DNA of 64,000 nt from Dehalococcoidia bacterium (GCA_963663895.2 CAXXRD010000005.1:96001-160000); one strand, 5' to 3'. Shown: positions 17,967 through 43,600, numbered from the stretch's first letter. The notes: a model not told the origin generated them from the letters alone. Numbers and translations are program-made.

Positions 17967-19939
17967 TTGTCCGTCGTGAGCGACGACATGCAGGAGGCCG
18001 CCGATAGGGCAGCGGCTGCTGCGGAAGGTGCGCCTGAGATCGCGCTGCCGGAGCAGGAGCGCGTCTACCGCGCGCCCGCGCGCTTCGGGCACGTGCCCGT
18101 TGCCGATGTGCCCAAGGGCTGGGACGCGCGCAACCCCGGCTTCCGCAACCACTACCCGAACGTACGGCTGCCGACGCAGGTGGTGGAGCGTGTCAGCCTC
18201 GGCGCGCCGGAGCTGGAGCCGAACCGCCTGATCTGGGGCGACAACCTGCATGTGATGCGCACGCTGCCCTCGGAGAGCGTCGACCTCATCTACATCGACC
18301 CGCCGTTCTTCTCGAACCGCGTCTACAACGTGATCTGGGGAGACGAGCACGAGGAGCGCTCGTTCTCCGACATCTGGGAGGGCGGCCTCGACGGCTACTT
18401 GATCTGGCTCAACGCCCGTCTCTACGAGATGAAGCGCCTGCTCAAGCCCAGCGGCTCGATCTACGTCCACTGCGACTGGCACGCCTCGCACTACATCAAG
18501 GTCGAGATGGATAAGGTCTTTGGATACGAGAATTTTCAGAACGAGATCGTCTGGCACTATGGGGGCCGAGGTGCCAAAGCTGTTGCGAAGAGATTCCCCC
18601 GGAATCATGATGTGGTGTTGTTTTACGCCATAGGAGATCGGCATCCGAGTTTCCATAGGCAGTATGCGGATCGCCTTGCTACACCAGAAGAGGCACGGCG
18701 TCGGGGCTTGCGCAAAGACACTGACGGTCGATGGTTCAAGACCGCTCCGAGGGGGGATTACACAGACGACTCCATACAACGGCTTGATGAAGAAGGGCGT
18801 ATACACCGAACGAGAACTGGCTCGATTCGTATCAAATACTTCCTCCGTGAAGAGAACGGGATGGTCGTAGAAGACGTCTTGGTCGGAGACACTTGGTCCG
18901 ACATCTCGGATGCTATGCATATTGGTAGCGAGCGTGTCGGCTACCCCACGCAGAAGCCTGAGGCGCTGATCGAGCGCATCATCCGGGCGTCCTCAAACGA
19001 GGGCGACTTGGTACTTGACATATTCGCGGGGGGGGCACTACAGGGGTGGTCGCTCAGCGGCTCGGCCGCCGCTGGATCATGTGCGACCAATCGCGCGTCG
19101 CGGTCGCCGTCACCGCCGAGCGGTGCAAGCACGCGGCGATCGAGCGCGCGCTCGGCGACGCGCCGCTGCCCGATTTCACGATCGAGCACTGGGGCGTCTA
19201 CGAGGCTGAACGTCTGGCGTCGCTCTCACTGGAACAGTTCCGCGCCTTCGTCCTCGACTGCTACGACGCCCGCCTCCCCAGCACGGATGAGGGTATCCAC
19301 GGTTACAAGGGCGCGTCGGCGCGCGTGCCGGTCTGGGTCGGCCCGCCTGCGCTGACCTCTACCGTCGACGCGGGCGACGTCAACGCCTTCGCGCAGGCGA
19401 TCGCGCGGCTCGACCGCTACCGTGGCGAGGAGGGGCTGCGCGACGGCGTGATGCTGGCGTGGGGATTCAGCCCCGGCGCGCGCCGTGCTGCCACGGAGCT
19501 GCGTGAGCGCGAGGGCGTCTCGCTCGCCTTCGTGCGCCTCGAACAGGTCCGCATCGACTCGCCCGACTTCCGCCGGCATATCGCCAGCCAGTCCACGGAG
19601 CGCGGCGACTACTCGCAGTTCCTCACCTTCGTCCAGCCGCCGCTGGTCGAGGTCGCGCACCGGCGGATGAAGCGACTGCATTACGAGTTCGATGCCGGCG
19701 ACACGCAACCGCAGAACGCGGACGCTTCGATCGTGAACGTGCAGTGGGATTTCGATTACGACGGACGCACCTTCCGCGCCGCGCGCGGGGAGTGGTTCCA
19801 CCGCAAGGGCAAGGGCGGTGCTCCCGTGCTCGATGCGCAGTACACGTTCCCCCGCGCGGGCTCGTTCCGCGTCGCCTGCCGCGTGCAGGACGACAAGGGC
19901 GGCGAGGGCGAGTGGAGCGGCGAGATCGCGGTGGAGTAG
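17967..19939 (+). CDS. Beta-class N6/N4 DNA methyltransferase (Type III Mod-like) with C-terminal extension; frameshift in G8 tract at 19028-19035
   Basis: DLIYIDPPF motif IV, then TRD, YPTQKPEAL and motif I F-A-G-G-G-T-T, restored by adding one G. It continues into ORF 19046..19939, ending in a PKD-like QWDFDYDG..YTF..AG..RVACRVQDDKG domain. Confidence 0.88.
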
Positions 19940-19943
19940 CGCC

Positions 19944-21956
19944 GTGCAGAACGCCTTCCTTCCGCTTGAGGACGACTTCGCGCTCTGGGTCGAGAGCGGC
20001 TTCATGCCCTCCGAGCCCGCGACGCAGGACTATCTGCGCTTCCTCGCGGACCCGGACGACGAGCGGGAGCCGCGGCCGAACGGGCTGTGGCGCCACCAGT
20101 GGGAGGCGCTGCTACGTTTGATCTACGCGCGCGAGGTAGCGAATCGCGGCTTCTGGGAAGACGGCCTGTTGCTCAACGTCGTCACCGGCGGCGGTAAGAC
20201 GGCGCTGATCGCGGCGACGATGGTCTGGCTGCGGCTCGCCCACGACGTGCGGCGTTTTCTCATCCTCTGCCCCAACCTGATCGTGCGCGATCGCCTTGAG
20301 GGTGACTTTCGCAGCGGCAAGGTGTTCGCCGAGCGCGGCCTGATCCCTCCCGGCGCGATCGTCTCGTCGGACGATTTCGCGCTGACCACGCTCGGCGGGG
20401 CATCAAGGGCGACGGCGGGCGATCTCTTCGGCGCGAACGTCGTGCTCGCCAACATCCACCAGTTCTACCGTAGCAGCGCGACCGGCCGGCAGAATCTCTG
20501 GAGTCTGCTGGAGGCCGACCAGACGCCGTTCGCTCTCTTCAACGACGAGGCGCACAACACGCCCGCGCCGGAGTACGACGCCACGCTGCGAGACCTCCAC
20601 ACCCACGGCGGGTTCCGCTTTCGCCTCGACACCACTGCGACGCCGGATCGAGCCGACGGTAAGCCGGTCGACAGCCGCATGATCTACGAATACGACGTTC
20701 CCGCCGCGCTGCATGACCGCGTCATCGCGACCCCCGTCGTCTATCAACCCAACATCAAGACGGTCGAGTTGACCTACACCGACGCGGAAACGGGTGAGAC
20801 GCGCCGTGTTGAGGAGATCGATTGGGACGAGGTCGATCGCGCGGGTCTCAGCGCCACCCAGTGGGTGACCGACGACAAGCCGATGAGTCAGCAGATCAGC
20901 ATCGCGCTCAACCGTCTCGGCGAGGCCAAGCGCAACGCCAACGGCCGCTACCATCCGGTGCTCTTCGTCGTCGCCGTTTGCAAGGCCGACGCGCGGGTTG
21001 CGCAGCGAATGCTGGAACAGCGGTTTGGGCTGCGCGCGCTGCTCGTGACCGAGGACGAGGACGAGCAGGCCCGTATCGACGCCGCTGCGATCGGCAAGAG
21101 AGGTAAGTACGATGCCGTCGTCAGCGTTGCGATGCTGCGCGAGGGTTGGGACGTGCCAGAGGTCGCGGTGATCCTGCTGCTGCGCAAGTTCGGCAGCAAG
21201 GTCTACGGCCCGCAGGTGGTCGGTCGCGGGCTGCGCCGCGTCCGCCGGGACGGCATCGAGCCGGACGAGCCACAGATCTGCGCGATCGTTGATCATCCAA
21301 AGCTCGACCACGACTGGCTGTGGGAACTGCTGCGCGCCCGCGTGCGCAGTGATGTCGGCGTAGACCAACAGTTCGATGAGCGCGAGGAGGTCGGTGAGCC
21401 CCCGCCGCGCCAGGAGATCGTCAACCGCGATCTGCTTATCAGTATCCCTGAGCCGCAAGAGGACGAATCGGTGATCCTTGATCCGGTAACGGCTGAGCCA
21501 TCGCCGAAGCCAGCGCGCGACTGGCGCCAGCAGCTTGCCGCGCTCGCGTATGGGGCTGAGGCAGTAGAGATCACCGATGTGATGCTGAAGGGCGTCACAG
21601 GACAGGAACTCAGCCCGGGCGGCTGGACGCGGCACAAGAGAGCGCCTGCCGACATCGCCGCGGGCGAAGGCACGCAGCAGCTATCCGCCGACGAATTGCG
21701 CGAGCACATACGGGAACGTCTCCACCAGATCGCGGAACTAGCGACGATCGAGGCAGGCTATCCAGCGCCGCTGCGGCGGCACGTCTACCCGCCGCTGCTC
21801 GAACATCTCTCGGAGCGCTGGCTCGGCGGCGTGGCTATCCCCTTCGCGGAAGAGGACGCGCTGCGCGGTGCGGCGCGGTGGCTCCACCAACTGGAGGCCG
21901 CGCTGTTGGCGCGCACGGACATCGTCGGCGGGATGGTTGAGCATGGCGCTCGGTAA
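19944..21956 (+). CDS. Type III Res-like SF2 helicase/ATPase, lacking a C-terminal nuclease
   Basis: TGGGKT, DEAH, TATP, MLREGWDVP and QVVGRGLR motifs; GTG start 4 nt after the MTase stop. Confidence 0.88.
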   Translation: MQNAFLPLEDDFALWVESGFMPSEPATQDYLRFLADPDDEREPRPNGLWRHQWEALLRLIYAREVANRGFWEDGLLLNVVTGGGKTALIAATMVWLRLAHDVRRFLILCPNLIVRDRLEGDFRSGKVFAERGLIPPGAIVSSDDFALTTLGGASRATAGDLFGANVVLANIHQFYRSSATGRQNLWSLLEADQTPFALFNDEAHNTPAPEYDATLRDLHTHGGFRFRLDTTATPDRADGKPVDSRMIYEYDVPAALHDRVIATPVVYQPNIKTVELTYTDAETGETRRVEEIDWDEVDRAGLSATQWVTDDKPMSQQISIALNRLGEAKRNANGRYHPVLFVVAVCKADARVAQRMLEQRFGLRALLVTEDEDEQARIDAAAIGKRGKYDAVVSVAMLREGWDVPEVAVILLLRKFGSKVYGPQVVGRGLRRVRRDGIEPDEPQICAIVDHPKLDHDWLWELLRARVRSDVGVDQQFDEREEVGEPPPRQEIVNRDLLISIPEPQEDESVILDPVTAEPSPKPARDWRQQLAALAYGAEAVEITDVMLKGVTGQELSPGGWTRHKRAPADIAAGEGTQQLSADELREHIRERLHQIAELATIEAGYPAPLRRHVYPPLLEHLSERWLGGVAIPFAEEDALRGAARWLHQLEAALLARTDIVGGMVEHGAR

Positions 21957-22293
21957 GCGCGGCAACTTCGAGAATCCTGGCAAGAGCGCGTGGAACTTCG
22001 AGGTCTACGACAGTGGTCTCGAACACCGCATGATGGAGCGCCTTGAGGCTGACCCCACCGTGCGCAAGTGGACGAAACGCCACGGCGTTTCGATCGGCTG
22101 GCTCGACTCGCGCCACCGCCGCCACACTTATCGCCCCGACTTCCTTATTGAGTACGTCGATGGCTCGCTCGCACTGATCGAGGTCAAAGGCGCGGGGCTG
22201 GTCGATTCGGAGGCTGTTCAGCGGAAGCGTCAGGCCGCTGAGTTGTGGTGCCGTCGCCGTGGCATGGAGTACTCGCTGGAGACCATCGGGTAA
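21943..22293 (+). CDS. Stand-alone PD-(D/E)xK endonuclease, TnsA-N-like
   Basis: YDSGLE..MERLE.DP.V and YRPDFLIEY...LIEVKG; its ATG overlaps the helicase 3' end by 14 nt. Confidence 0.8.
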   Translation: MALGKRGNFENPGKSAWNFEVYDSGLEHRMMERLEADPTVRKWTKRHGVSIGWLDSRHRRHTYRPDFLIEYVDGSLALIEVKGAGLVDSEAVQRKRQAAELWCRRRGMEYSLETIG

Positions 22294-22805: not shown

Positions 22806-23420
22806 ATGTCTGCCGAGTCACCGCGTGTCGAATTCACGGAGGCAGCGAAGACCAAGCTGCGCGAGGTGATCGCGAATTACCCGGAGCCGGTCGCGGGGCT
22901 GCGCTTGAAGGTCGCCCGCCGAGGGCCCGAAGGCCTCGATCACCTGCTGACCATCGTTGAAGAGGGCACCGAGCCGGAGGGCGACGCGGTGGTCGATGCC
23001 GGCGGGATCACCGTATTCGTCGAGGGCGCGAACGTGTCCTATCTGGACGGCGTCTCGATCCACTATGAGGACAAGGGTCTTGGAGTGAGTGGCCTGGAGT
23101 TCGACAATCCGAATCCCACGTGGCTGGATCCGCTCGCCGCGCGGCTGCAGGAGCTGTTCGACGTGCACATCAATCCGCAGATCGCGGCGCACGGGGGCTA
23201 TGTGAGTCTTTTGGACGTGCAGGACAGGACCGCTTACATCGAGATGGGCGGCGGGTGCCAGGGGTGCGGCATGGCGAACGTCACGCTCAAACAGGGGATT
23301 GAGGTGGTGATTCGGGAAGAGATCCCGGAGATCGAACAGATCATCGATACGACCGACCACGCATCGGGGTCCAATCCCTACTACACGCCCTCCAAGGCGG
23401 GAGCCGGCGCGGCGAAGTAG
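22806..23420 (+). CDS. nfuA: Fe-S biogenesis protein NfuA (degenerate A-type carrier plus Nfu domain)
   Basis: FTEAAK...LRL, FDNPNP, INPQIAAHGG and GGGCQGCGMA..TLKQGIE. Confidence 0.9.
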   Translation: MSAESPRVEFTEAAKTKLREVIANYPEPVAGLRLKVARRGPEGLDHLLTIVEEGTEPEGDAVVDAGGITVFVEGANVSYLDGVSIHYEDKGLGVSGLEFDNPNPTWLDPLAARLQELFDVHINPQIAAHGGYVSLLDVQDRTAYIEMGGGCQGCGMANVTLKQGIEVVIREEIPEIEQIIDTTDHASGSNPYYTPSKAGAGAAK

Positions 23421-23451
23421 CCGCGGCCTTCGCGGCTCGGAGCCGCGCCCT

Positions 23452-24909
23452 ATGCGGGTTCTCCTCGCTTCGACGTACGAGTTGGGGCATCAGCCGCTCG
23501 GGCTGGCGTCGCCGGCGGCCGCCTTGCGGGCGGCGGGACACGAAGTCCGCTGCCTCGATCTGGCCGTGGAACGGCTGCCTGGGGCGGCGCTCACCGAAGC
23601 GGAACTCGTTGGCATCTCCGTGCCCATGCATACGGCCGCGCGGCTGGGCTTGGCCCTCGCGGCGCGGGTGCGGGCCCTGAGTCCGAGCGCCCATATCGTG
23701 CTGTACGGCCTCTACGCTTCGTCGCTGCACGCGCAGCTGCTGGGGCGCGGGGTCGTTGATTCGGTGGTGGGCGGTGAGTATGAGCCGGGGCTTGTGCGGC
23801 TCGCCCGCGCTCTCGCGGCGGGCGAGGCGGCGGCGGAGGGGATCGACGGCGTGGGCGTCGATCCGAGCTTCGCGCGAGGCGCCCAGATCGTGCCGGATCG
23901 TCGTGGACTGCCCCCCTTGCATCACTACGCGCGCCTCTCCCTGGGGAACAAGGGAGGCGAAGGCTCGCATGAGGGTGACTTGCGGCTGGCGGGCTACGTG
24001 GAAGCGAGCCGGGGTTGCGCGCATGTCTGCCGCCACTGTCCGATCACGCCGGTATACGACGGGCGTCTGCGGGTGGCGGCGATGGAGACGACGCTGGCCG
24101 ATATTGACCAGCTCGTCGCGATGGGCGCGCGGCATATCACCTTTGGCGATCCGGATTTCTTCAACGCCGTGTCCCGCTCGCTGGCCATCGTCGAGGAGAT
24201 GCGGCGCCGCCATGCGGACGTGACCTTCGACGCGACGGTGAAAGTCGAGCACCTGCTGGAGCATGCGGATCTGCTGCCGCGCCTGCGAGAGTTGGGCGGC
24301 TTGTTTCTGACCTCGGCGTTCGAGTCGACGAACGACGCCGTGCTGGCGCGGCTCGACAAGGGGCACACGCGCGCTGATATGGAGCGAGCCTTGGCACTGG
24401 TGCGAGACGCGGGACTGACGTTGCGGCCCACCTGGCTTCCGTTCACGCCCTGGGCAACAGCCGAGGACTTCTTGGAGCTGCTGGAGTTCGTCGAGCGCTG
24501 GGGACTGGTCGAGAGCGTACAGCCGGTGCAGCTTGCGCTGCGCCTGTTGGTCCCTCCGGGTTCGGCGTTGGTGGAGGCGTTGGAGGCGGATGGATTGCTC
24601 GGCGAGTACGACGAGGATGGACTGACCTATACATGGCGCGGCGTCGATCCGAGGGTGGAGGCCTTGCAGGCGGACGTGGCGACGATCGTTGAGAGCGCGG
24701 CTCATGAGCACGACCGGCGGGAATCCGCACTGGCGACGTTCACTGCGGTGAAGCGCGTGGCCTACCGGGCCGTGACCGGCGTGGACGGAGCGGTGGAGGT
24801 GGTTTCGCAACCGCCCGCCGTGGTGCCGGGGCTTACCGAGGCATGGTTCTGTTGAGCGGAGCCGACCGCGGAGCAGTTGGCTCCGCTCGAGGTCGCGGCA
24901 ACGGTTTAG
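23452..24909 (+). CDS. CUAEP-tail B12-binding radical SAM selenoprotein (Sec UGA at 24853-24855)
   Basis: N-terminal cobalamin-binding-type domain and RGCAHVCRHC motif. TGG TTC TGT TGA GCG GAG CCG reads WFC-U-AEP and continues to TAG at 24907-24909. A SECIS-like hairpin follows, and selA is in the window. Confidence 0.88.
24856..24886 (+). promoter_or_regulatory. Putative bacterial SECIS hairpin
   Basis: GCGGAGCCGAC pairs with GTTGGCTCCGC (11 bp including G-U pairing) around CGCGGAGCA, starting immediately 3' of the UGA, with a G-led apical loop. Confidence 0.7.
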
Positions 24910-24965
24910 CGACCAACTCTACGCGCGGGCCTCAATGCGCGGCGCCTGCGGAAGATCCGGAAAGC

Positions 24966-26243
24966 TCACGGCGATGAGGGACGGCTCCGCTCGGCGGGCG
25001 AAGACGGACTGCCGGCGCTGCTCGTATCGAGTTCGAAAGTGAGCGCGGCGTGGGCCCGGCGCAGCGCCGCTTCCACGGCGCCGGGCGCCTCTCCGCGAGC
25101 GAAGATGAAGCCCGGATACTCGCCGCCTTCTGGTAGGGGGACGAGGCGTCTCCCCGCCGTGACGGTGATGAGGACCTCCGTGATCAAAGGTACCGCGCGT
25201 GCCTCGTCGACGCCGTGGACGGCTTGGAGGATTCCTTCCCCGGGGACGGGGATCATCATCACGCCCGATGCGAGCGAGTCGCGCTCCACGTTCGGCGCCT
25301 CGTCGAGCGCCTGTCGCAGCACGAGTTCCTCCAGGGAGGCACCGCCGGCGAAGGTGAGGGCGCGGGCGCAGTGCCCGCCGATCGTGCGCGCCGCGAGGTC
25401 GATCGGCCAGATACCGTCTTCGTTGATGCGGAGCTCGATGTGGACCGGGCCCGAATGGAGGCCGAGCGCGTGCGCGGCCCGGGCGGCGGTCGCGGCGATC
25501 GTCTCCTGCTCCTTCTGCGGTAGCCGCGATGGGGTGACGTAGATGGTTTCCTCGAAGTAAGGACCGTCCAATGGGTCCGGTTTGTCGAAGAGCGCGAGGA
25601 GTTGGAGGTCGCCGTGCTCCAGGAGTCCCTCAAGGGCGACCTCGGTGCCTGGGATGAACTCCTCGATCAAGACTCCCGCTGCCGCGTCGCCGCACTCGGC
25701 GGCGATTTCGGGGTTGGAGAGCAGAGCGCGAAGCCGCTGGAACGCGGCGACGAAGGTTGGCGGGTTGTCGGCGCGGATAACGCCACGGCTGCCCGACAAT
25801 GCAAGCGGCTTGAGGACACACGGGTAGGGCGCGCGTTCGGCTAGGACGGTGGGGTCGTCGCGGATGACGGCGGCGAGATACTTGGGCGAAGCCAGCCCGG
25901 CCTCGGCAAGCCGCCGCCGCAAGCTGAGCTTGTTGCGCGTCGCCAAGACGGCGTCGATGGGGTTGTGCGGGAGGTCCAGCCAGCGGGCGGCCCGGGAGGC
26001 GAGCGCGATGCCTTGGTCGTCGATGGCGAGGATGGCGTCGAGTGGATGGTCGTGGGCGAAAGCCGCGATCTGCTGTGGGCCGGCTTCGGGATCCTCATAG
26101 TCGACGTGGAGCATGCGAGCGGACGCGAGCGCGGGCGCGCGGTTGCTGCCGACTACGATCTCCGCGCCCAAGCGTTCGGCTGCGGCGAGAAAGGCGTCCG
26201 CGCGGTAGGTAGCGCTGGGTATGAGGAGCAGAACGCGCCGCAC
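24966..26243 (-). CDS. ATP-grasp domain ligase
   Basis: [39 protein letters not shown] and GPVHIELR...IDLAAR; GTG start at 26243. Confidence 0.88.
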
Positions 26244-31380: not shown

Positions 31381-31456
31381 GGGCCTGTAGCTCAGGGGTC
31401 AGAGCAGGCGGCTCATAACCGTCCGGTCGCTGGTTCGAATCCAGCCGGGCCCACCA
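31381..31456 (+). tRNA. tRNA with CAT anticodon, probably tRNA-Ile2 (lysidine)
   Basis: GGGCCTG/CGGGCCC acceptor stem, GGCGG-CT-CAT-AA-CCGTC anticodon arm, GGTTCGAATCC and ACCA end. The paired G1-C72 excludes an initiator tRNA. Confidence 0.92.
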
Positions 31457-31910
31457 TCACGTACTGAACTGCGAACTCCTTCGGCGAGCGCCACCTCGGC
31501 GGCGTCCTTGTGCCCGATCGGGCTGTCTTCCGGCATCGGGATCGTGTAGTGGATCACGGCCCGGCCGGGCTCGACGGCGATGCGCTTGATGAAGGTCCGC
31601 AGGAAGGCCTTCGATCGGTGATGTCGCTGCTGCGCAGGAACTCGGCCATATCTGCGACGAACTCGGCCACTACCTCGGCCTTATCCAACAACACGCGACG
31701 CTCGGCGAGGGCGTTCCTCGCCTGCTCGGCCGCAGTCTCCAGCTGCTTCTTGCGCGCCATGTACTCGCGGATGCGCGGCGCGGCGTCGTCCACATCAAGG
31801 TCGGTCTTCTCGATCACCCGCCAGATGCGGTCCAGCATCAGCCGAATCTCGCGCAGCTCGGCCGCAGTCTCCAGCTGCTCGCGCTCCTCGCGGGCCGCGC
31901 CGTCCATCTC
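31457..31910 (-). pseudogene. C-terminal remnant of a large serine recombinase abutting the tRNA 3' end
   Basis: Coiled coil (RIREYMARKKQLE) then KAFLRTFIKRIAVEPGRAVIHYTIPMP, reading into the tRNA complement (GGPGWIRT). No catalytic N-terminus; internal frameshift. Confidence 0.72.
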
Positions 31911-32268
31911 CTCAGTTGCACAACTCTTCTACGAGTGTCTGATGCTGTGCGCCTTGCATTCGACGCCAAAGACAACGGCAACACCAGCGGCTAAGCTGGC
32001 CGACTTGGACCAGCTAGACTCGCTTTTGAAGTCAGAAGTGTGGAGGCTTCTGCTAAGGCTTGCCGGTACCGAGAGCGTCGTTGAGAACGTCTAGCTCACC
32101 AACAACGAATCCGTGTCTCCGTTGTCGCCGTACGCCGAGTATGCATCCGTCGTGCTCCGCTGAGGCAATCAAGCGTCTGCATCATTCCGCCGACCGAGCC
32201 TCGGCAGTCGGTGTCCAACCCCGCAACGCTCGATGCGCATTGGCCATTCCCTGCTAGACGCGAACGTG

Positions 32269-33309
32269 TCAGCGCCCTGTTACTGCTGCATACAGGTGAC
32301 CAATGGGCGGACTGGTTGTTCTATCCTGACCGCAGGTGGCACGGGTACGTTCGCCGGTACGAACCTCCACATGGACATGTTCGTCTGCAGAACCGTTTAA
32401 GTAGGGGTAGCCACCTTGAATGCCAAGCCGCTTCCCCACCCAAACTGTTTCATCTTTCACCACTTCAGCGGCTCGCGCATGCAAGTAGACGACAGTAGTG
32501 CGCCTGTGTTTGTCGTAGATTGCAATTGTTCCTAGCCCAGTCCCATCTTCGGCTCTGGTCACGACCCCCGTCGTCAGCGAGTAGAAGTACTCGTCGTCAG
32601 TCTCGTCAGGGTCGTCCCCAGCAACGGTTAACGTCTGCGAATCCCATCCTGCGTGCTTCCAATCGGTTCGGCCGTTGCATTCATAGCTTCGATTGTCGCC
32701 ATAGTTGCCGGTTGTCTGCGCGGGTTCGCTCGCGAACAGATAACTTAGGAGAACTTGTTTCTTGCAGCTGTCGTCTTGGCAGAATGGATGAGAATAGACG
32801 GAACTCAGTGGTATGGGAATCTGAATCCAAGATGTAGCGAACCAGCCGGAATGACTGGCTTGAAGTGTCCAGATAGTCGGTCTAATGTCGCTGGGATGCC
32901 AAGCGACGCGAAATGCGAGCTGAAGCGATCCGGTGCTATGGATCTTTCGTGCGATGACGCGGCCTGAGAAGCCGTTGGCTAGTTCCAGTTCAGCGCTCTC
33001 AACCCAACGACTCACTCCGCTCATTCGGTGCGTCTGAGACCAGTCAGGGGCCGTGGTAGGAGGAAAGTTGACCCGGTGCCACCTGTCGCTATCCGGTGCA
33101 GCGTAGTCGTACAGCCATACCGTGGCGACCGTGTTGGATCTTTCGCTCCACTTAGCCCATATCCGAACCCAGGTCTGCTGCCTAGATATGTTCTCCTGCG
33201 TTGCTGTACCTTGCACAGAGAGGGCGGGTGTGGCGACGACGAGGACGGGGACTAGCCAGAGCAGGAGTTTCAGCTTGACGGCTGTCCGCAAAGTGCTTCG
33301 ACCTGCCAT
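32269..33309 (-). CDS. Secreted M23-family metallopeptidase
   Basis: Signal peptide, HAGWD (HxxxD), VYLH and HVHVEVR motifs; low-GC segment. Confidence 0.75.
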   Translation of the reverse strand: MAGRSTLRTAVKLKLLLWLVPVLVVATPALSVQGTATQENISRQQTWVRIWAKWSERSNTVATVWLYDYAAPDSDRWHRVNFPPTTAPDWSQTHRMSGVSRWVESAELELANGFSGRVIARKIHSTGSLQLAFRVAWHPSDIRPTIWTLQASHSGWFATSWIQIPIPLSSVYSHPFCQDDSCKKQVLLSYLFASEPAQTTGNYGDNRSYECNGRTDWKHAGWDSQTLTVAGDDPDETDDEYFYSLTTGVVTRAEDGTGLGTIAIYDKHRRTTVVYLHARAAEVVKDETVWVGKRLGIQGGYPYLNGSADEHVHVEVRTGERTRATCGQDRTTSPPIGHLYAAVTGR

Positions 33310-33363
33310 GTGATATTCTCCGAGTCGCTAGCGATTCGATCTGGACGCAATCGGGGCGAACCA

Positions 33364-35832
33364 GTGAAACAGCTTCTGACGGCTTCAGCCATCTTGCTCG
33401 TCGCGTTGTCAGCGCTAACGACCGAAGCCTCCGCTTCGGCAACCACCGCCACGATCTCTGGCCGGATTTCTCACGCGCCCGGTGATGAACCTGTCGCCCT
33501 GCGGATCCACGTATGTCACCCGGTTGAGCCAAGTTTCTCCTGCCTCCCATCGATTGCAATCACATCCGGATCGAGATTCCAGCTTTCAGTACCAGCAGGC
33601 GCCTATCAGGTCTGGTTCAAAATCGGCTCAGGTTCACTGCAAGCCTGGTACGACGAGTCATCCCCAGGAAACGTGACCTTCGACTTTAGAACCTCCACGG
33701 TGATACAAGCCAGCAGCGGGTCAGTCACCCTAAAGGACATCACGCTACCTCCGCTGACCACCATCACTGCCACCATTCACGACCCCGAAGGCGATCCAGT
33801 AGCCGGGGTAGCGGCCTATGTCACGAATCTCAACCACAACAACGTCTCTAAGACCTTTTCGACTGCCGATGGTGGGTTCTCCTTAACTTTACCGCACGAC
33901 ACCTACCACTTACAGCTCTTCCCTCCATCGACCTCGTCCCTCGCACCAGGCTACTACAGCACCCTCACGCCGACACGTCTCACTGCAGGACATTCCCCCT
34001 TAGCGCGATTCGAGCCGTCCGACTTCCCCATTGATCTCACCATCATCCTCACCAATGCCAGTTTCGTGTCGGTAACCACCAAAGACGCCAATGGCAATCT
34101 AATCTCCGGCATTAGCCTTGGCCTCTGTCACAGCAATGGCGGCTTATGTCAGTCGGGCAACTCCGCCAGCCCTCGCCAGGAACTCGCAGGTGGCGACGGG
34201 AGTTATAGGCTACACGCCGTTGTCGAAAGCACCATCTACTATCTTTCGCGAAACAATGGTGCACCTACACAGCACTTTGGCGAAGCGCTCGTCATCAACT
34301 TTCCGGCGGACTCCGGAAAACACCTTGAGTTCCGCATACCTGATCCCGATGATCTCGAGTACTACACCGTGAACATCACGGCGCCTCCATCGTCTCTTGC
34401 AGGCTGGAGCTACGAGGCGCAGTACTCAGACAGAGGCGCTTCCATTGGTATCTCACAACTGGGCAATCGACAGACTCTGCCGCTCCCCGATAGCGCTTTC
34501 CGCGTGCTCCTCCAGTCGCCCGCCGGTCACTACTACTATGATGCAGGACAGGGTAACTGGAGCCTGGATCGCAGAGACGCCGTTACGCACCACCCTGGTG
34601 ATCTAGCGGGTGCAGGGCTGACGCTGACTCTGCCGACCGCCCTTGATGTCTTCGACCCGATTGAGGTTGAGCTTGAGTTGGTGCCGGGAGTCAACATCAT
34701 ACCCTGGACCGCAGGGACCATTCCACTTGACCGCATCCGCAACGCAGTTGGCGGATCGACGATGCTCGCCCGGCTAGCGGGTAGTGCCCCTGAGCCGGGA
34801 TCTATCGCGCTTCGGCTGACAGATGCTGACCGTGACGGCCATCTTGGCGTGGGCGACGTGCTCGTTGCCCTTCACTTCGGCAGCGACGCTACTACGATTA
34901 AGACTTACCCTCCGCCTCCATTCAACTCCATTGAACTTGCACCAGATGGTCAGATCGTTGCCTGGCCGGGACCGTCCGACACCCGCTTGGCCGATATCGC
35001 GAAGGGACTTGGCTCGTTGCTAAGGGAGATCGCCGTGATTCCAAGAGTGGAGGGCTCGCGTCCACAGGCGTTGGGGCTTGCCGACGACCCAGTGGTTGAC
35101 CATGGAGCGCTCTTGTTCATTGATGTCTCAGCCCCAACCGTTTGGCTGGGACAGCAGAGTCGCGCGAACGTCGCTCTGAGCAGAATCGCGGTGGACCATG
35201 CCCCGTCAACCGAGAGGTTCATTCTGCGAGAGCTAGCGGACGTTCAGGCTCTGTTTTGGAGCCACTATGGCCTGCGGCGTGACGATTTGGTGTTGACGAT
35301 CGTACCGTGGCGACACCACAGCTCGGGCGGGCTGACGGGGATTACGCTGGACACATTTGCGATTGCGCATAGTAACGGTCTGTTTGGTCTGTTAGTGCAT
35401 GAGTACTGGCATACGATTCAGTGGGCTCACGATCCTGAGCGCCGAGCCCCCAGCTGGATGATCGAAGGCTCTGCTCAGTGGCTTCAGTACAGCGGCCCGG
35501 TACGTCGCCAAGGATCGGTTGATTGGGGCGAACACTATCGAAGGTATGCCGTAGAGCAAGCGGGTTCGACGGAGTACAGCCTGAAGAGTCTGGCGGAGGA
35601 AACTGACAATGGATGTGCTGATGAGTTGTGCTACGACCTTGGATACTTGGCGGTCGAGCTATTGATGAGGAATCATGGGGGTGAGGCGAAGCTGATTGAC
35701 TATTGGCGTCAGCTTCAGGTGTTCGACGAATGGCAGGAGGCGTTTGCGGAAGTGTTTGGAACCTCCGTAGAGGAGTTTTACGAGCAATATGCTGAATGGA
35801 GGGCCGCTGGCTTTCCGCGACCTGTCGAGTAG
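33364..35832 (+). CDS. Large secreted protein: carboxypeptidase-regulatory-like beta repeats plus C-terminal HEXXH (MA-clan) peptidase-like domain
   Basis: Signal peptide MKQLLTAS..ASA, GDPVAGV...TADGGFSL repeats, HEYWH..Q, PSWMIEGSA and YDLGYLAV; low GC. Confidence 0.75.
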   Translation: MKQLLTASAILLVALSALTTEASASATTATISGRISHAPGDEPVALRIHVCHPVEPSFSCLPSIAITSGSRFQLSVPAGAYQVWFKIGSGSLQAWYDESSPGNVTFDFRTSTVIQASSGSVTLKDITLPPLTTITATIHDPEGDPVAGVAAYVTNLNHNNVSKTFSTADGGFSLTLPHDTYHLQLFPPSTSSLAPGYYSTLTPTRLTAGHSPLARFEPSDFPIDLTIILTNASFVSVTTKDANGNLISGISLGLCHSNGGLCQSGNSASPRQELAGGDGSYRLHAVVESTIYYLSRNNGAPTQHFGEALVINFPADSGKHLEFRIPDPDDLEYYTVNITAPPSSLAGWSYEAQYSDRGASIGISQLGNRQTLPLPDSAFRVLLQSPAGHYYYDAGQGNWSLDRRDAVTHHPGDLAGAGLTLTLPTALDVFDPIEVELELVPGVNIIPWTAGTIPLDRIRNAVGGSTMLARLAGSAPEPGSIALRLTDADRDGHLGVGDVLVALHFGSDATTIKTYPPPPFNSIELAPDGQIVAWPGPSDTRLADIAKGLGSLLREIAVIPRVEGSRPQALGLADDPVVDHGALLFIDVSAPTVWLGQQSRANVALSRIAVDHAPSTERFILRELADVQALFWSHYGLRRDDLVLTIVPWRHHSSGGLTGITLDTFAIAHSNGLFGLLVHEYWHTIQWAHDPERRAPSWMIEGSAQWLQYSGPVRRQGSVDWGEHYRRYAVEQAGSTEYSLKSLAEETDNGCADELCYDLGYLAVELLMRNHGGEAKLIDYWRQLQVFDEWQEAFAEVFGTSVEEFYEQYAEWRAAGFPRPVE

Positions 35833-35952
35833 GACGTCGCGAAGCACATTTGGAGTGACTGGGGCACCGATATGGGTTTGTTCTCGTGTGGCAACTGAGC
35901 ATTACTGGACCGGTAATGCCAAGCCCAACTTGTCGTCTTTTGCTAGACTGAG

Positions 35953-36201
35953 TTAGCAGGCTGTTGAACTTTGAGTCGTGGGGGCCGGACCTGGCGTTGA
36001 ACGACGGCTGGGCGCGGGCGTTGCAGCGGCTGCGGTCATGTCCTTGACGACGCCGAAGGTCTTCATCACCCGCATCCAGCGCAGCACGTGGTCGAAGCCG
36101 TTGTTCGTCTCCCGCGCATAGGTCCAGACATCGTCGACCACGTCCTGGTCGGGCTGGTAGCCGTCCTCAGCCCCCGCCGGACCGCCTCCGGATAGGGACA
36201 C
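35953..36201 (-). pseudogene. Short high-GC fragment of a larger (probably surface) protein
   Basis: Coding-like stretch YQPDQDVVDDVWTYARETNNGFDHVLRWMRV with no convincing start, at the island GC boundary. Confidence 0.35.
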
Positions 36202-37640: not shown

Positions 37641-40600
37641 CTACTCGCCGCCGTGGACGGTGAAGCGGCCGCTGTCGCCCCGTCCGAAGACCTCGGGGAA
37701 ATAGCTCTCCTCGGCGTGTGCGGGGGCGACGAAGAAGTCGCCCGGCGCCGTCGCCCGAGCGTAGTAGACGTACTCATGTACGCCCTGCGGCAGGCGGCTG
37801 GCGAGCAGCACGACGCGATCGTCACGGATGTCCACCTGATCCCACGGGCTGTAGTACCAGGCATACCAGGGCGCGTAGTACGAGGGGGCGCTGCCGCGCG
37901 GGGATTCGGCGCGCTCGGCTTGCAGCCGTTGGCGCAGCTCGACCGGCGCGATGTTCAGCCGCGGGTCGATCGGTTCGAGACCTGCCGGCAGGAAGTCCTC
38001 GATCTTGGCGAAGAGCCGCTCGGCCGGCGCGACCACCGTCAGCCGCACCCGGACCACGTCGCCGAGCGCGGCGCTTGTGATGGCGCGCTCGGGCTCGTCG
38101 AGGAGCGAGTACTGGTGGGAGATGGCGAAGCCGCGGTTGAGCGCCTCGATATCGCGCGCGGGCGTCACGTAGCGCAGGTTGAGGCCGTAGTACAGGCGTC
38201 CGTCCCGGCTGGCGTCGCGCTCGAACTGGACGCGGCTGACCTGGCCCAGCGGCAGATCCGCGAGCGCGACGGCGGCGCCGTCGTGGTAATCGCCGGCGGG
38301 TACGTCGAAGTCGCCGTCGAGCACCTGACGACCGTTGAGCCAGACGGCGTAGTCGTAGGCGCCGCGCGTCTCGCCGGTTAGTTCGGCGAAGGCGCCCAGT
38401 GCGGCCATGCCCTGAGCCCGCTCGACGCTCGTCTTCCAGCGGTCGGCCGTGCGCGCGGTCACGAGCCAGCGGGCGGTCTCCTCGATCAACGGGTGGTTCG
38501 GGTCGACCTCCGTGAGGGCGCGCAACACGAGGGCGGTGGGCCGCACGCTGCCGTTGTGCATCGAGCCGGAGCGCCGCTGGTCCTCCCAGTGGTTGCCGTT
38601 GGCGCTGGCGATGGTGGTGGCGGTGAGGTCGTTCAGAAGAGCGCGCACGGCGTCGTGGCCGGCGTCGTGGCCGCTGGCCAGGAGACCAAGCAGCAGGTAG
38701 GCGCGCCCCCAGCTCGTGAGGCTCGCCCGGTGCTGCTCGACGATGGCGAGCATGGCGTCCGCCTGATCCCGGGCGAGCGTGCTCGTCACGCCGCTGCGGT
38801 TCGCGGCGCTGGCGAGGGCGTACAGGAGGAAGGCGTGCTGGTTCGGGTTTGCGGGCCGCTCGACATCGGTCTCGCGGTTCATGTAGTCCATGATCAACCC
38901 CGCCGCGCGCGTGAGCACATCGTCTGGGACATGGTGGCCAACATCGCGCGCCTCGCCAAGGGCGAAGAGCACCCAGCCGCTGACCCACATGTTGCTCCTG
39001 CAGCCACGACACCAGCCCCAGGCGCCGTCGTAGCGCTGCGTCCTGATCAGCGCCGTCACGTCGGTTTGGAGTTGGTGTTTCTGTGCCTCGGTCAGTCCGT
39101 CGGCGTTGGCGCGACGTACCGCGACGGTGGCGACGACACGGCTCGCGATCCGCACGCTTGACTCGTAGCGATAAGGACTGAAGTGGGACAGCTCCGTATC
39201 GAGCGCCCCGACCAGCGACCCTTGGATCGACAGCTCCAGCGAGCCGGCCTCGGTGACCACGTAGTCGGGAAGGTAAACCGCCTCCACCGCCGGGGCGTCC
39301 TCGACGACGCCCCCGGTTGCGGTCGTCTCGGGCGTGACGTCGAGGTACACAGGGACGCTGATCTCGACGGCGTCGCCGTAGCCGCCGGAGGCGGTGGCGC
39401 GGAAGCGCAGCGCCGCCCTGCCCTCCGCCAGAGCGCGGGCGGGCCATTCAAACACGGTCGAGTCGTCGGGTTCGACGCGTCCGGAGAGGGAGGCCTCGCC
39501 GTCGAGCGTCAGGCCCTCGGCTTCGAGAGCGATAGTCACGTCACGGGCGGCCGCCGTGTCGTTGCGTACCAACGCCCGCAGGATGACGGCGTCGCCGACG
39601 CGCAGGAAACGGGGCAGGGCCGGGCGCACGAGCAGCGGCTGCGTGACCAGCAGCTCGCTCTCGCCCTCGCCGATCTGCGTCGCGCCGTTGACGGCGCGCG
39701 CGCGCGCGCGCCAGGTGGTGGCGTTGTCGGGCAGGCGCAGCTCGAAGTCGGCCCTGCCGTGCGCGTCGGTCACGAGCTGCCCGATCCAGAGCGCCGTGTG
39801 CCGGAAGTCCGAGCGCAGCCGCGGACCGGCGCTACCCTCCGGGCTGCTTCGGGCGAGGGCCTGTGCCGCTGGCGCTGCGGCTTCTTCCGCATCGCCGCCA
39901 ACACCTCCGCCCGCCGTATTCTCCGCATCACCGCTGCCCATGCCCTCATCGCCCTCTAGAGCTTCTTGGTACGCTTCATTGCGGCGGTCGACCGAAACGG
40001 CGAGCGACGAGGCCGTCCGTACGCCCAGCGCGCGCTCGTACCAGAACGCACCCATGCCGTCCGGCCCTGCCTCGTCCGCCAATGAGAGGACCGCTTGGTC
40101 GACGATCGCGACCGAGACCTCGGCCGCGACGCCGCGCCCATCGGCGTCGGTCGCCTGCACCTCGTAGCGCACCGTCTCGCCGGGCGTGGCCTGCTCTCGA
40201 TCCGGATCGATGCGCACCTTGAGTGCGCGCGGTGCCGTCGAGACGGACAGCTCGACGTAGCCGACGTGGTAGCGCGGCCACGGGTCGTCTTGGGTAGGCG
40301 GACGGTAGAGCACGACGCCGACGTAAACGTTGGGCAGATGCGCGTCCTCGATCGGGATGCGGAGCACTTCGCTGTTCGTGTCGAAGCTGCGCACCTTGCT
40401 GCTCAGCACGCGGCCCCGCTCGATCGTCACGAGCCCGGTGGCGCCCGCGAAGGGTGCGGGCACGAGCACCTCGGCGGTATCGCCGACCTCGTAGCGTTCG
40501 CGGTCGGCGATGAGCTCGATGATGTCGTCGTCGCGCACCCGCCAGGGCGCGTATTCGTCGCCGCTCACCCAGAGGGAGGTGGCGGAGCGGGCAACGCGGC

Positions 40601-43600
40601 CCTGATCGTCGGTCGACTCTGCCACGAGCCGGTAGGTGCCCGCCGAAGGCGGCGTGAACGTGATCGTCGCCTCGCCGCTCTCGTTCGTCATCGCCGACTG
40701 CACCGCGATCTCGGTGTCGCGCGGCTCGCTGCGATAGTGGTAGCCGCCGTGGTCGGCCCGCTCCTTCGTCCTGATCCACTCACGCTCGAAGATGCGCACC
40801 GTCACCGCCCGGCGCGGCGCGATTTGGCCCTCGACATCGACGGTCACGAGGTGGATGGCCTCAAGCTCCCCGGCTGTGGCGATATACGACTCGGGCCTGA
40901 TGCCCGCATACCAGGTGGCGGGATGAACGGTCACGGTGGTGCTATTCGCCACGGCCTGCGCGTTCGCGTCCGTCACTGTCGCGCTGATCGTGAACTGCTG
41001 CGTTCCCTCGTCTGCTTCGAGCGCGGCGTGAACGTCGAAACGCGCGACGCCTGAGGCGTCCGTTCGCGTCTCGCTTCTATCACGTGCGGGGTCCCTGTAG
41101 CCGTCGGCCCGTGTCCAGTAGTAGTCGTGATCGGAGAAGGAGTAGTCCTCGTAGCCCTCGACGCGGATCGCCGTTGGAGATGCCAGCGCCACCCATTCGA
41201 CGCCTGCGTCCGCGACGGCGCCGCCGAAGAAGAAGCGCGCCGCCACCTCGGTAGGGATCGTGTCGCCGGCGAGGTAGTGGGCCCCGGCCGCTGTGACCTC
41301 GACCTCGAATTCCGGCGCGCGGAACTCCGCGACCGTGAAGTACGTGGTGGCAATGTAACGTCCGGTGTCAAACAGCTCGACTCGGTACGTCCCCGTGGGC
41401 GCATCGCCGGGGAGTGCGAGTTCGCCTGCGAACGTTCCCAGCTCGCTGATCTGCACGCTCGTCTGCAGGAGATCGGCGTAGCGCGCATCACGGATGGTCA
41501 CGGTGAAGCGGGCGTCCGTCCCTGGAATGGAGTACGACGCGTCCTCTTCGTCGCGCACGACGCCCTTATAGAACACCGTCTCGCCGGGCCGGTAGATCGG
41601 CCGGTCGGTGTAGAGGTAGCCCACTGTGCCGGGAAAGTACGCGTGGGCCGGTACGTCCAGTTCCCACGGCGAACTGCCCGAATCCCACCAGGTGGAGGCC
41701 ACACCCTGACGCCCGCCCTCGTCGATGCGCACGAGGTAATCCCCGTAGGGGCTTCCCCAGAAGTAGTAGTAGCTGTCTTCGGTGCCCTGGGAGAGCACGG
41801 CGAACCGGGCGAGTCCGTTGGAGTCCGTGACGGCGGTCTCGTAGGGGCGGTGGAGAGGCTCCTCAAGGGGGGCCACACGAACTTCGACGCCGCTGAGCGG
41901 TTCGCCCGTGTTGTAGTCGAGCGCCCAGACGAGCAGCTCATCGAACGCCAGCTTGGTTACGATCGCCGCATCGACGACGCTCAACACCAGCTTCCGCTCA
42001 AGCTCTAACGCTGTGTTGTCCGCAACTACGAGATAGTGATCCTTGGAGAGAGGCTCGCCGGTGCTGAGCGCGGTCGAGTAGAGCCGCGAGGCGCCGCGCA
42101 GATCCTCGTCGATCGGCTCCACCCACTCCCGTATGGGATCGCTGCCGGGCTGGAAGGTGACGTACTCCTGATCGTTGGCGCTCCACCCATCGATGAAGCC
42201 CCGGCGCAGCAAGGTCTCCGCTTCGGAGTCGGACAAGTGATACAGGCGGAAGCGCACCTCTTCGAGCTGGGCCGCGTGGTAGTACAGGATCTGCTGCCGG
42301 TTCGCGGAGAAGGTCGAGAAGCTGGCCGGCGCCGCGAGGCTCAGCGATGGCAACGGGGCACGCGTGGTGAACGAGAACTCGCTGGCCGGCAGCGGCCGTC
42401 CCCCACGGTCGCGCACGCCCTCCGCGATACGCACCGTGTAATCCGTTGAGAACTGGAGGCGGACATCCAAGTAGACGGTCTCCGGTCTCCAGGAATACGA
42501 GATCGGCTCGATGTCCTCGGGGTCGACGCCGCTGATCGAGACACGTCCCTCGAAGGAGTCGATGTCCATCGGGTTGTTGTAGTGGAGCTCGATCCCGTAC
42601 GGCCAGGCAGCGGTCTCACCGTCCTGCGGGTCCGTGCGCACGAGTTGCGGCGGCTCGACCGTCGTGAAACGCACACCCCGCTCGGCGTGCGTGGTCCCAC
42701 CGTCTGCACCGCGCAAGCCGGCCGGCGCGACGACTGCGTAATCCGTGTCGAGCGCCAACGGTTCGGCAGGTGTGAGCGTGACTACCGTGTCGTCCTCGCT
42801 CCAGGTGAGTGAGGTCCTGACGGCGTCTCCGCCCTGCTCGCGCAGGGCGAGGCCCGCCTCGACCGAGGCGCGGTCCATCGGCTGGTTGAACGCGATCACG
42901 ACCGGGCTATCCGGTTCGACATGGACCGAGTTGTCGCTCGGCGTAAAGCTCGTGATCGCGGGCTGGACGGTCGCGAAGCTCCAGGCGAAGTCGGATGCGA
43001 GGACGCCGTCCGCCGCCGAGGTCAGCCCCGCGGGGATGCGCACGGCGTACTCGGCGCTCGGCTGCAGATCGGTGGGGATGAAGCGGTAGAGCGAGGTGTT
43101 GAGCCACTCGCCCCGTCCCGCGAGCGGCGGGTCGAACTCCAGCACTGCCGCCGCGGGGCTTTCCTGGAGCACTGTGAGCGGCGCGACTGAGCGATTGAAC
43201 TGCACGAGGATCTGGGCGGTCGTGGGAACTTCCCTGTCGCCATCGCTGGGGATGACGTAGGACACCGCTAGCTGACCCTTGACGGTGAACGTGTGTGCCT
43301 GGTCGGCTGCGATACCCGCGGCGCCGGCGTCCACGCGCAGCCGGTACTGTTGCCCCCGCTGCCAGCCGGGGAAGGCGGGCTGGAACAGCAGCGTGCGCTC
43401 GTCGGCCCAAATGAAGGCTCCTTCGGCCGGTGGATCGATTGAGACGAGTCGGCTGGCGTCGGCTTCACGGGGCGGATCGCGAAAGGTGATCCGCACGGTC
43501 GCGAGCCGCGGGATTTCCACACCTTCGGGTGAGATGGCGATGGCCGGTGTGCCGTCGGGGGTGGATCGGGGCACCGTGACGGCGAGGTCGCCGTAGCGGT

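Follow-up and report, generated by a model that had tools for sequence, protein, structure and literature searches.

A CUAEP-tail radical SAM selenoprotein beside an ATP-grasp ligase in a Dehalococcoidia bacterium, and its kinship with ArsL

Does a gene that gene callers end at a TGA codon encode a selenoprotein, and what might such an enzyme make together with the genes beside it? The question is raised by a 64,000-nucleotide stretch of the genome of a Dehalococcoidia bacterium (GCA_963663895.2, CAXXRD010000005.1:96001-160000; the whole stretch is hereafter called the window), in which a gene for a radical S-adenosylmethionine (SAM) enzyme (rSAM; 23452-24909, +) lies between a gene for an NfuA-like iron-sulfur (Fe-S) carrier (22806-23420, +) and one for an ATP-grasp protein of the L-amino-acid ligase (LAL) type (24966-26243, -). 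Judged from its sequence, the rSAM gene almost certainly encodes a genuine selenoprotein and a member of family NF040546, and it very probably forms a conserved module with the ligase gene. As to the product, a far more tentative proposal is put forward, drawn from the likeness of the enzyme to ArsL.

The radical SAM selenoprotein and its recoding signal

The table-11 open reading frame (23452-24855) stops at TGA 24853-24855. Read through, the frame continues as ...GLTEAWFC-U-AEPTAEQLAPLEVAATV and terminates at TAG 24907-24909, which gives a protein of 485 residues with WFC-U-AEP at residues 465-471 and a pair of cysteine and selenocysteine (Sec), Cys467-Sec468. The TGA at 24853 and the frame end at 24909 had both been placed correctly in the original prediction, a reading of this DNA that proposed a hidden selenoprotein of the recognised CUAEP/CCAEP-tail family. 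That assignment is borne out by NCBIfam NF040546 (CUAEP/CCAEP-tail radical SAM (seleno)protein), which the protein matches at 595.2 bits against a cut-off of 500, residues 3-477 aligning with profile positions 1-467 of 468. No difference from the family is evident, since domain order, CxxxCxxC motif, C-U-A-E-P tail and a full-length score over the cut-off are all shared. The protein is thus an already catalogued selenoprotein, an added member of a recognised but uncharacterised family, whose structure and function are described as 'not well known' in the Haft preprint (10.1101/2022.07.06.499078); the original prediction had likewise regarded it as a family without a known reaction.

Pfam recognises a B12-binding N-terminal domain (PF02310, 42.4 bits) and a Radical_SAM domain (PF04055, 40.1 bits) in the protein, and the CxxxCxxC cysteines, C189/C193/C196, are invariant across 77 sequences. 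The AF2 model has a mean pLDDT of 90.6 and a pTM of 0.91; its least confident part is the tail (residues 451-485), where pLDDT falls from 83 to 51.

The homolog survey returned 7767 sequence clusters at E <= 1e-30, and the best 120 homologs, of which the closest come from Dehalococcoidia and Chloroflexi by their source names, were examined at the tail. The database call ends at WFC in 103 of these 120, and 17 continue as WFCCAEP (WFCCAEPT..Q). At the nucleotide level, 110 loci were compared, namely the window, 29 relatives belonging to its own taxonomic family and class, and 80 diverse loci (L050-L129) from public genomes that carry eleven phylum-level labels, all such labels being taken from record titles. 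The codon at the Sec position is TGA in 87 of the 110 and TGC or TGT in 21, while two loci are cut by a contig end. A check for Cys at the UGA position, proposed at the outset, was therefore positive in both sets (17 of the 120 homologs; 21 of the 108 complete loci). The C-(U/C)-A-E-P motif was present in 108 of the 110, the two cut loci making up the rest, and an in-frame AEP(T)xxQ followed in all 108 complete loci, Sec and Cys forms alike. Homologs that end at WFC and lack a conserved AEP, the pattern named beforehand as speaking against a selenoprotein, were thus absent from the complete loci, and the retention of AEP(T)xxQ in both forms indicates that the tail matters as protein, beyond its role in RNA. 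In a phylum sample of 251 genomes the rSAM was found in 63, with an in-frame TGA in 22 of those.

Two named organisms carry the two forms. On the megaplasmid of Thermomicrobium roseum DSM 5159 (NC_011961.1 796591-798027; L130:7935-9440) the frame continues as WFC-U-AEPLEDPSGPVASQVRMVDQPLR, with a read-through tail of WFC-U-AEPLEDPSGP..., past the UGA at which the RefSeq coding sequence stops; a cultured aerobe therefore carries the Sec form. A pyridoxal phosphate (PLP) aminotransferase gene divergent from the rSAM gene and an MFS transporter gene convergent with it flank this locus. The record of a named Nonomuraea strain holds a natural Cys form.

The signal for recoding is a hairpin of the selenocysteine insertion sequence (SECIS) type at 24852-24890 (+), with a conserved upper stem at 24869-24885 and the apical loop AGUUG at 24875-24879. 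A hairpin had been predicted to begin directly after the UGA; it is present, but it starts at the UGA, which lies in its base, and it comprises 15 bp with a further 2 bp at the tip. Folding of a 71-nt stretch gave -41 kcal/mol (z -4.8), a stability matched by no shuffle out of 200. The UGA forms have in common a short hairpin some 15-33 nt past the codon with the apical loop AGUU(G), and the stem varies among them in a compensatory manner (GGAGC/GCUCC, GGGACC/GGUCCC, GGGCC/GGCCC and GGGAUC/GAUCCC). RNAalifold found five pairs in 70 distinct UGA-form stretches, four of them with compensatory double changes, and at pair 17-33 both sides had changed in 31 sequences; in 21 Cys-form stretches it found no pair. 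Stems have a median length of 6 bp in the Sec forms and 4 bp in the Cys forms (Mann-Whitney p 8e-6), and the local hairpin minimum free energy is -10.9 and -7.1 kcal/mol, respectively (p 7e-9); because the sequences are related, both p-values make the difference look stronger than it is. Leu in the loop is encoded by UUN for 72 of the 81 Sec forms, and 11 of the 21 Cys forms use CUN. Over the whole 48 nt after the codon the median energies (-17.1 for Sec and -16.5 for Cys forms) did not separate the two, and a fixed-column pair count did not work as a comparison because the stem has two registers. Rfam at its gathering threshold returned two tRNAs for the window and no SECIS family. The bacterial SECIS check that had been suggested thus yielded a hairpin that covaries in the UGA forms only.

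The source genome (2.37 Mb, 5 contigs) holds the machinery to use this signal. The gene selA, for L-seryl-tRNA(Sec) selenium transferase, lies in the window itself at 57704-59056 (-; TIGR00474 498.2 bits, cut-off 267.9), 32.8 kb from the rSAM gene, in agreement with the roughly 33 kb first noted; it belongs to the decoding machinery and stands outside the module. A search of the genome for the remaining components, also proposed earlier, recovered them all: selB (327.5 bits, or 349 with a neighbouring match; cut-off 242), a tRNA-Sec with anticodon TCA, and selD (G000:C2:564495-565427), the single in-frame TGA of which makes selD a likely selenoprotein too. On this sequence evidence, the UGA is almost certainly decoded by way of the conserved hairpin and the genome's own Sec machinery.

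The partner ligase and the Fe-S helper genes

The gene order in the window is NfuA-like (+), rSAM (+), ATP-grasp (-) and CopA (+). The NfuA-like gene ends 31 nt before the rSAM ATG, and the rSAM and ATP-grasp genes are convergent, with a stop-to-stop gap of 56 nt. The ligase (425 aa, GTG start at 26243) has the domains ATPgrasp_N (41.1 bits), ATP-grasp_4 (113 bits) and LAL_C2 (56.6 bits), all over their cut-offs. Named equivalogs scored far lower than required (DdaF 53 of 840 bits, BacD 36 of 850). Against the Protein Data Bank (PDB), the ligase-family profile matched BL00235, an L-amino-acid ligase of Bacillus licheniformis (3VOT; E 9.9e-69, 235.5 bits), ahead of BacD (104) and RizA (49); the window ligase alone matched BL00235 at 135.6 bits over residues 22-393. 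BL00235, the best solved relative, has the same three-domain LAL architecture, and Met-Gly, Met-Met and Met-Ala are its products according to two reports (PMC6920838; PMC4302092). Only one Cys is invariant in the ligase family, which indicates that the ligase has no cluster of its own.

A conserved linkage of the rSAM to the ATP-grasp gene had been proposed, and the wider survey upholds it. A ligase ortholog was found in 48 of the 80 diverse loci, under nine phylum-level labels. In the 51 of these 80 loci that extend 4 kb or more to either side (the full-flank loci), it lay within 4 kb of the rSAM gene in 34 and within 300 bp in 24; for five genomes without an adjacent ligase gene, an ortholog was present elsewhere (553-590 bits) in four. 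In the phylum sample, both genes occurred in 61 genomes, the rSAM alone in 2 (one of which is a partial match at a contig end), the ligase alone in 17 and neither in 171, so that 61 of the 63 rSAM-positive genomes hold the ligase. Among the genomes counted are two marked as unpublished, G102 (both genes) and G223 (ligase only), without which the numbers become 60, 2, 16 and 171; no probability is attached to the counts because kin genomes are non-independent. The two genes lie less than 500 bp apart in 38 of the 61 genomes, within 10 kb in 5, and elsewhere or on another contig in 18.

Thirteen loci with the ligase and no rSAM were scanned for an alternative enzyme beside the ligase, and nothing consistent was found. 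A pyridine-nucleotide-disulfide oxidoreductase gene was seen in three related loci of this kind. At another (L151:5204-8215, in genome G092, which lacks the rSAM), genes for a Cys/Met-metabolism PLP enzyme and an NfuA-like protein and the ligase ortholog run in one direction. Enzymes of the Cys/Met-metabolism PLP type make gamma-substituted aminobutyrates by a polar route, and it is possible that this single case represents a way of making, with no radical step, the kind of amino acid that is proposed below.

The NfuA-like protein (Pfam Fe-S_biosyn 38.7 bits, NifU 70.3 bits) joins a Cys-free A-type N-terminal domain to a NifU C-terminal domain with GGGCQGCG, and its gene is present as a single copy in the genome. 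NfuA of Escherichia coli is built from a degenerate A-type domain and an Nfu domain, and delivers clusters to radical SAM clients, LipA and MiaB among them. The window protein resembles it in its two-domain architecture, Cys-free N-terminal domain and CxxC in the Nfu domain, but differs in a conserved C-terminal TDHxxGxNPYYxPxKK, in its score to the NfuA model TIGR03341 (115.2 bits, under the cut-off of 269.35), and in that its gene stays beside the ligase gene even where there is no rSAM.

Amongst the 80 loci, 30 hold an NfuA-like gene (within 4 kb in 20 of the 51 full-flank loci) and 24 a gene for a YggX-like (Iron_traffic) protein (within 4 kb in 16 of the 51). The two are mutually exclusive: both occur together at none of the 80 loci and one or the other at 54, while neither is found in 15 of the 51 full-flank loci. 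Other neighbours at the 80 loci are aconitase (12, all close kin), DUF169 (10) and a formyltransferase paralog (6). An NfuA-like gene also lies beside the ligase gene in 5 of the 13 ligase-only loci, in divergent or co-directional arrangements that are not simple deletion remnants, and these five genomes (91-98% complete) gave no rSAM match at E <= 1e-10. It had been suggested that NfuA, encoded 31 nt upstream, supplies the Fe-S cluster to the rSAM. The suggestion is too simple, given that the NfuA-like gene adjoins the ligase in five rSAM-free genomes and alternates with the YggX-like gene.

A complex of the window ligase with the NfuA-like protein was predicted with an ipSAE of 0.49, against 0.01 for the best of three controls; the runs agree in at least 69% of contacts, and the partner pLDDT is at least 78. 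Of the 78 solved complexes used for calibration, 51 reached the mark, as did 2 of the 108 mismatched pairs, but at scores of 0.60 or less 5 of the 78 solved complexes passed, together with all 4 mismatches that passed. A pass of this kind is more often wrong than right, and the model lends weak support to such a complex.

Kinship with ArsL and the proposed reaction

After NF040546, the second-best family for the window rSAM is NF040542 (ArsL, RCCLKC-tail), at 282.3 bits (E 7.5e-84, positions 1-413 of 423), and the third-best, HpnR, reaches 57 bits. ArsL and four RCCLKC-tail plasmid proteins were aligned with CUAEP members, and the window protein was found to be 30-35% identical to these five over about 410 residues. 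Around the cluster motif, E184, R187-G188-C189, H191, C193, C196, Y202 and G204 are invariant in both families, as are H228, F231, D233, D235 and the vicinal CC/CU pair of the C-terminal tail. From SAM, ArsL generates methylthioadenosine and a 3-amino-3-carboxypropyl (ACP) radical, which it joins to As(III) held by three tail cysteines, and the original idea that the Cys-Sec tail might be a soft-atom-binding arm fits this sister enzyme (10.1101/2024.02.01.577332). Both the ACP-radical chemistry and the As(III)-holding Cys tail are also described in a second source (10.64898/2026.04.29.721666).

The clusters of both families often hold an LAL-type ATP-grasp gene. In five of six plasmid ArsL-type clusters, those of Bacillus cereus, Priestia, Alicyclobacillus, Pantoea and Klebsiella, an ATP-grasp gene is annotated, the sole exception being the arsQML cluster of Pseudomonas amygdali. 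The ATP-grasp-bearing clusters (L132-L136) also hold arsM and genes for an MFS transporter, a CobW-type GTPase, an aquaporin and an arsN1-type acetyltransferase. The three records from Bacillota additionally annotate a small gene of the carboxymuconolactone-decarboxylase family. The LAL architecture was recognised by Pfam in the two ArsL-cluster ligases scanned (Bacillus and Alicyclobacillus), and BL00235 was the best PDB match of the two searched (Pantoea and Bacillus). Arsinothricin may thus arise as a peptide in those plasmid hosts, or be converted into one. Methionine is itself a 3-amino-3-carboxypropyl group on a methylated sulfur, and the relative of the ligase, BL00235, and the relative of the rSAM, ArsL, therefore independently indicate the same amino-acid shape.

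By analogy with ArsL, a [4Fe-4S] cluster on C189/C193/C196 would cleave the C-gamma-S bond of SAM to give methylthioadenosine and an ACP radical, and the radical would be trapped by a soft atom that is either bound to the flexible Cys467-Sec468 arm or part of it. The product would be a gamma-substituted 2-aminobutyrate, a methionine-shaped amino acid that the partner ligase would condense with a second amino acid to form a dipeptide, and the NfuA-like or YggX-like protein would sustain Fe-S chemistry in these lineages, most of which are aerobic, and may make contact with the ligase as well. Cleavage of SAM in the ACP manner is, on this analogy, a proposition of slightly less than even probability. 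The whole chain, from ACP transfer onto the Cys-Sec arm through to the dipeptide, is put forward more tentatively, as the leading one of the readings weighed here but as something that is rather less probable than its opposite. A little more doubtful still is its most specific form, in which a swinging Cys-Sec arm accepts or tethers the ACP radical, a carbon-chalcogen or carbon-metalloid bond not involving arsenic is made, and the methionine-like product passes into a dipeptide. Arsenic is unlikely to be the captured atom.

A number of observations weigh against this proposal, and they concern the enzyme, its surroundings and its partner in turn. The window rSAM scores well below the ArsL cut-off (282.3 against 450 bits); its tail, C-U-A-E-P, offers two chalcogen ligands, whereas R-C-C-L-K-C of ArsL offers three; and CUAEP proteins have about 50 extra residues ahead of the tail. 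A full-text search of the literature on the CUAEP/CCAEP tail found only the Haft preprint and no measured reaction for any member, and a search for literature joining ArsL, selenocysteine and radical SAM found none. The arsenic genes of ArsL clusters are scarce around the 80 diverse loci (ArsM-like genes at 2-3, ArsR at 1 and ArsC at 1), and Acr3, ArsB, ArsN1, ArsQ, aquaporin, CobW and CMD were each found at none of them. The specificity of BL00235 for Met-X is an in vitro finding (PMC6920838, PMC4302092), and its match to the ligase is remote. Orthology of the window ligase with the ArsL-cluster ligases was considered and rejected, as identity is 21-23%, other plasmid ATP-grasps score higher, and the ArsL-cluster ligases form a separate long-branch clade in a quick tree. 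The ArsL-type rSAM/LAL pairing is thus recurrent but analogous, not orthologous. The ligase is also missing where it might be expected: the Nonomuraea genome has no ortholog (best match 142 bits), and no ATP-grasp gene lies within 8 kb of the T. roseum megaplasmid locus. Conversely, the rSAM is lacking from 17 genomes that hold the ligase. A quick maximum-likelihood tree nests 12 ligase-only sequences within a set of 22 rSAM-linked ones, and its well-supported branches require no fewer than two changes. The ligase is therefore not dependent on the rSAM product.

An arsenic context for the CUAEP module as such was also considered and set aside, any one ars gene being found at no more than 3 of the 80 loci. 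The 64-kb window holds none of the arsenic cluster genes. The CUAEP module, which is widespread in the sampled genomes, thus differs from ArsL clusters in standing outside ars operons and in lacking their transporter and resistance genes.

The asymmetry between ligase and rSAM agrees just as well with a pathway that begins with the ligase. The ligase would make an ordinary dipeptide, for example one containing Met or Cys, which the rSAM would then modify, perhaps while the dipeptide is tethered as a mixed selenenylsulfide from which a carbon radical would displace a selenium-centred radical (a displacement at Se-S that is itself conjectural). Such a reversed order is an unlikely but serious alternative. 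It would account for the rarity of the rSAM without the ligase (2 of 63 rSAM-positive genomes) beside the more frequent ligase without the rSAM (17 of 188 rSAM-negative genomes), as well as for the nesting of ligase-only sequences through at least two supported changes. However, a ligase that outlives the loss of the rSAM could simply take another substrate, no thiol-containing product is known for the ligase family, and the substrate of ArsL is no peptide but an inorganic ion bound to the enzyme's own tail (10.1101/2024.02.01.577332).

The ArsL-like proposal also places the Cys-Sec pair in the role of a substrate holder, and this too may be questioned. A canonical 5'-deoxyadenosyl radical could act on a small molecule, with the pair serving as a redox selenenylsulfide arm that gives a hydrogen atom or electrons, in the way suggested by the C-terminal Gly-Cys-Sec-Gly arm of mammalian thioredoxin reductase. 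The standard CxxxCxxC motif and radical SAM fold are consistent with this, as is the falling pLDDT of residues 451-485, which would suit a mobile arm. The rarity of CU motifs noted in the Haft preprint may also be counted in its favour, but that same text takes such motifs as heavy-atom binders (10.1101/2022.07.06.499078). Moreover, ArsL, the one CxxxCxxC enzyme known for an ACP radical, is closer than any other relative by over 200 bits, and the residues around the cluster motif are common to the two. This reading is judged rather improbable.

A further alternative takes the NfuA-like protein and the ligase as the real pair, engaged in Fe-S homeostasis, with the rSAM as a client or accessory and no free metabolite. 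Their adjacency in 5 of 13 ligase-only loci, in genomes free of the rSAM, would be explained by this, and the strict alternation of the NfuA-like and YggX-like genes (never together at 80 loci, one of them at 54), the neighbouring aconitase gene at 12 closely related loci and the complex prediction (ipSAE 0.49, weak support) all point the same way. The last of these is of a kind more often wrong than right, though, and the ligase, with a single invariant Cys, has no cluster of its own. The NfuA-like gene has no second copy in the genome, so that its protein may act as a general carrier, and neither helper is present in 15 of the 51 full-flank loci. The probability of this alternative is put quite low.

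That the protein is a cobalamin-dependent radical SAM methyltransferase acting on a metalloid, close to the 'B12 enzyme' and metalloid-methylation system originally envisaged, is very unlikely. The B12-binding domain found by Pfam (42 bits) does suggest it, and the structural matches of the AF2 model after the best include TsrM, OxsB and MgmA, with TokK and CysS also among them; TsrM, OxsB, TokK and CysS are cobalamin enzymes. The best structural match, however, is AprD4 (PDB 6FD2; TM 0.68 to 0.72, E 5.6e-20), a radical SAM diol dehydratase that is not known to require cobalamin. It resembles the window protein in combining an N-terminal Rossmann-like domain with a radical SAM core, but is 17% identical, catalyses another reaction and has no Cys-Sec tail. 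By sequence, PDB entries were matched weakly (best E 3.4e-6), and no ArsL structure is deposited. All named methyltransferase families score far under their cut-offs (HpnR 57 of 650 bits, PhpK 39.6 of 600, the MCR Gln methyltransferase 32.6 of 360), as does BchE (55.6 of 481). H13, in the GHQP motif, is replaced by Tyr or Phe in all five ArsL-type sequences, and ArsM-like genes are nearby at 2-3 of the 80 loci. The nearest enzyme is thus ArsL, at 282 bits against 57 for HpnR as the best of the cobalamin type; ArsL moves a 3-amino-3-carboxypropyl group and not a methyl group, and cobalamin is not mentioned in the main text of the preprint on its reconstitution (10.1101/2024.02.01.577332).

Finally, it is scarcely credible that the TGA is a true stop, with a protein ending at WFC and an incidental similarity downstream: gene callers and RefSeq do end there, as do 103 of 120 database homologs and the annotated T. 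roseum coding sequence, but AEP(T)xxQ persists in 108 of 108 complete loci, 21 of them with a Cys codon, the hairpin covaries only in UGA forms, and the full Sec machinery is present.

Surroundings of the module and significance of the family

Genes near the module in the window were weighed as further parts of it and rejected. CopA, GlpD, a cupin, an F420 oxidoreductase and a Mo-oxidoreductase each recur at 0-4 of the 80 loci, in close kin only; the divergent CopA, found at 3 of the 80, reflects local synteny.

Several other features of the window were recorded. Just 5' of the module lies a restriction-modification-like block (17967-22293) that includes an adenine-type DNA methyltransferase (17967-19355), a helicase/restriction protein (19818-21956) and a TnsA-like endonuclease fragment (21868-22293). 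On the other side, the G+C content drops behind a tRNA (31381-31453), to 54-61% up to 36000 against 66.5% window-wide, in a stretch that codes for an M23-peptidase-like protein (32269-33309, -) and an 840-aa CarboxypepD_reg protein (33310-35832, +); the region 31381-36000 may be an inserted island. Farther along are a bacterial alpha-2-macroglobulin of 2128 aa (37641-44027, -) and a Type ISP restriction-modification enzyme of 1095 aa (Type_ISP_C + N6_Mtase; 45272-48559, -). Directly 3' of selA and on the same strand, a gene at 56284-57648 (-) codes for a 454-aa protein, the C-terminal part of which matches AmmeMemoRadiSam system protein A (121 bits) and the N-terminal part, faintly, protein B.

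The family to which the rSAM belongs is large and without a known reaction, with 7767 sequence clusters and eleven phylum-level labels over 80 loci, and public annotation cuts most of its members at the UGA, as seen for 103 of the best 120 homologs and for the T. roseum RefSeq coding sequence. The question of what it does is nevertheless a testable one, given a cultured carrier of the Sec form (T. roseum DSM 5159), a natural Cys form in the Nonomuraea record and an identified partner ligase for which the shape of the substrate is predicted. ArsL, its only characterised relative, changed the view of the SAM chemistry open to CxxxCxxC enzymes. If the ArsL-like proposal is true, the CUAEP/CCAEP proteins would be a second CxxxCxxC family with ACP-radical chemistry and the first with selenocysteine in radical capture, and such a second ArsL-type family, with selenocysteine in its substrate arm, would widen SAM chemistry further. 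The product would then be a common metabolite of Chloroflexota, Acidobacteriota, Actinomycetota and other groups from soil and water, linked to Fe-S maintenance by way of NfuA or YggX, and the enzyme would give these bacteria one reason to retain their selenocysteine machinery.

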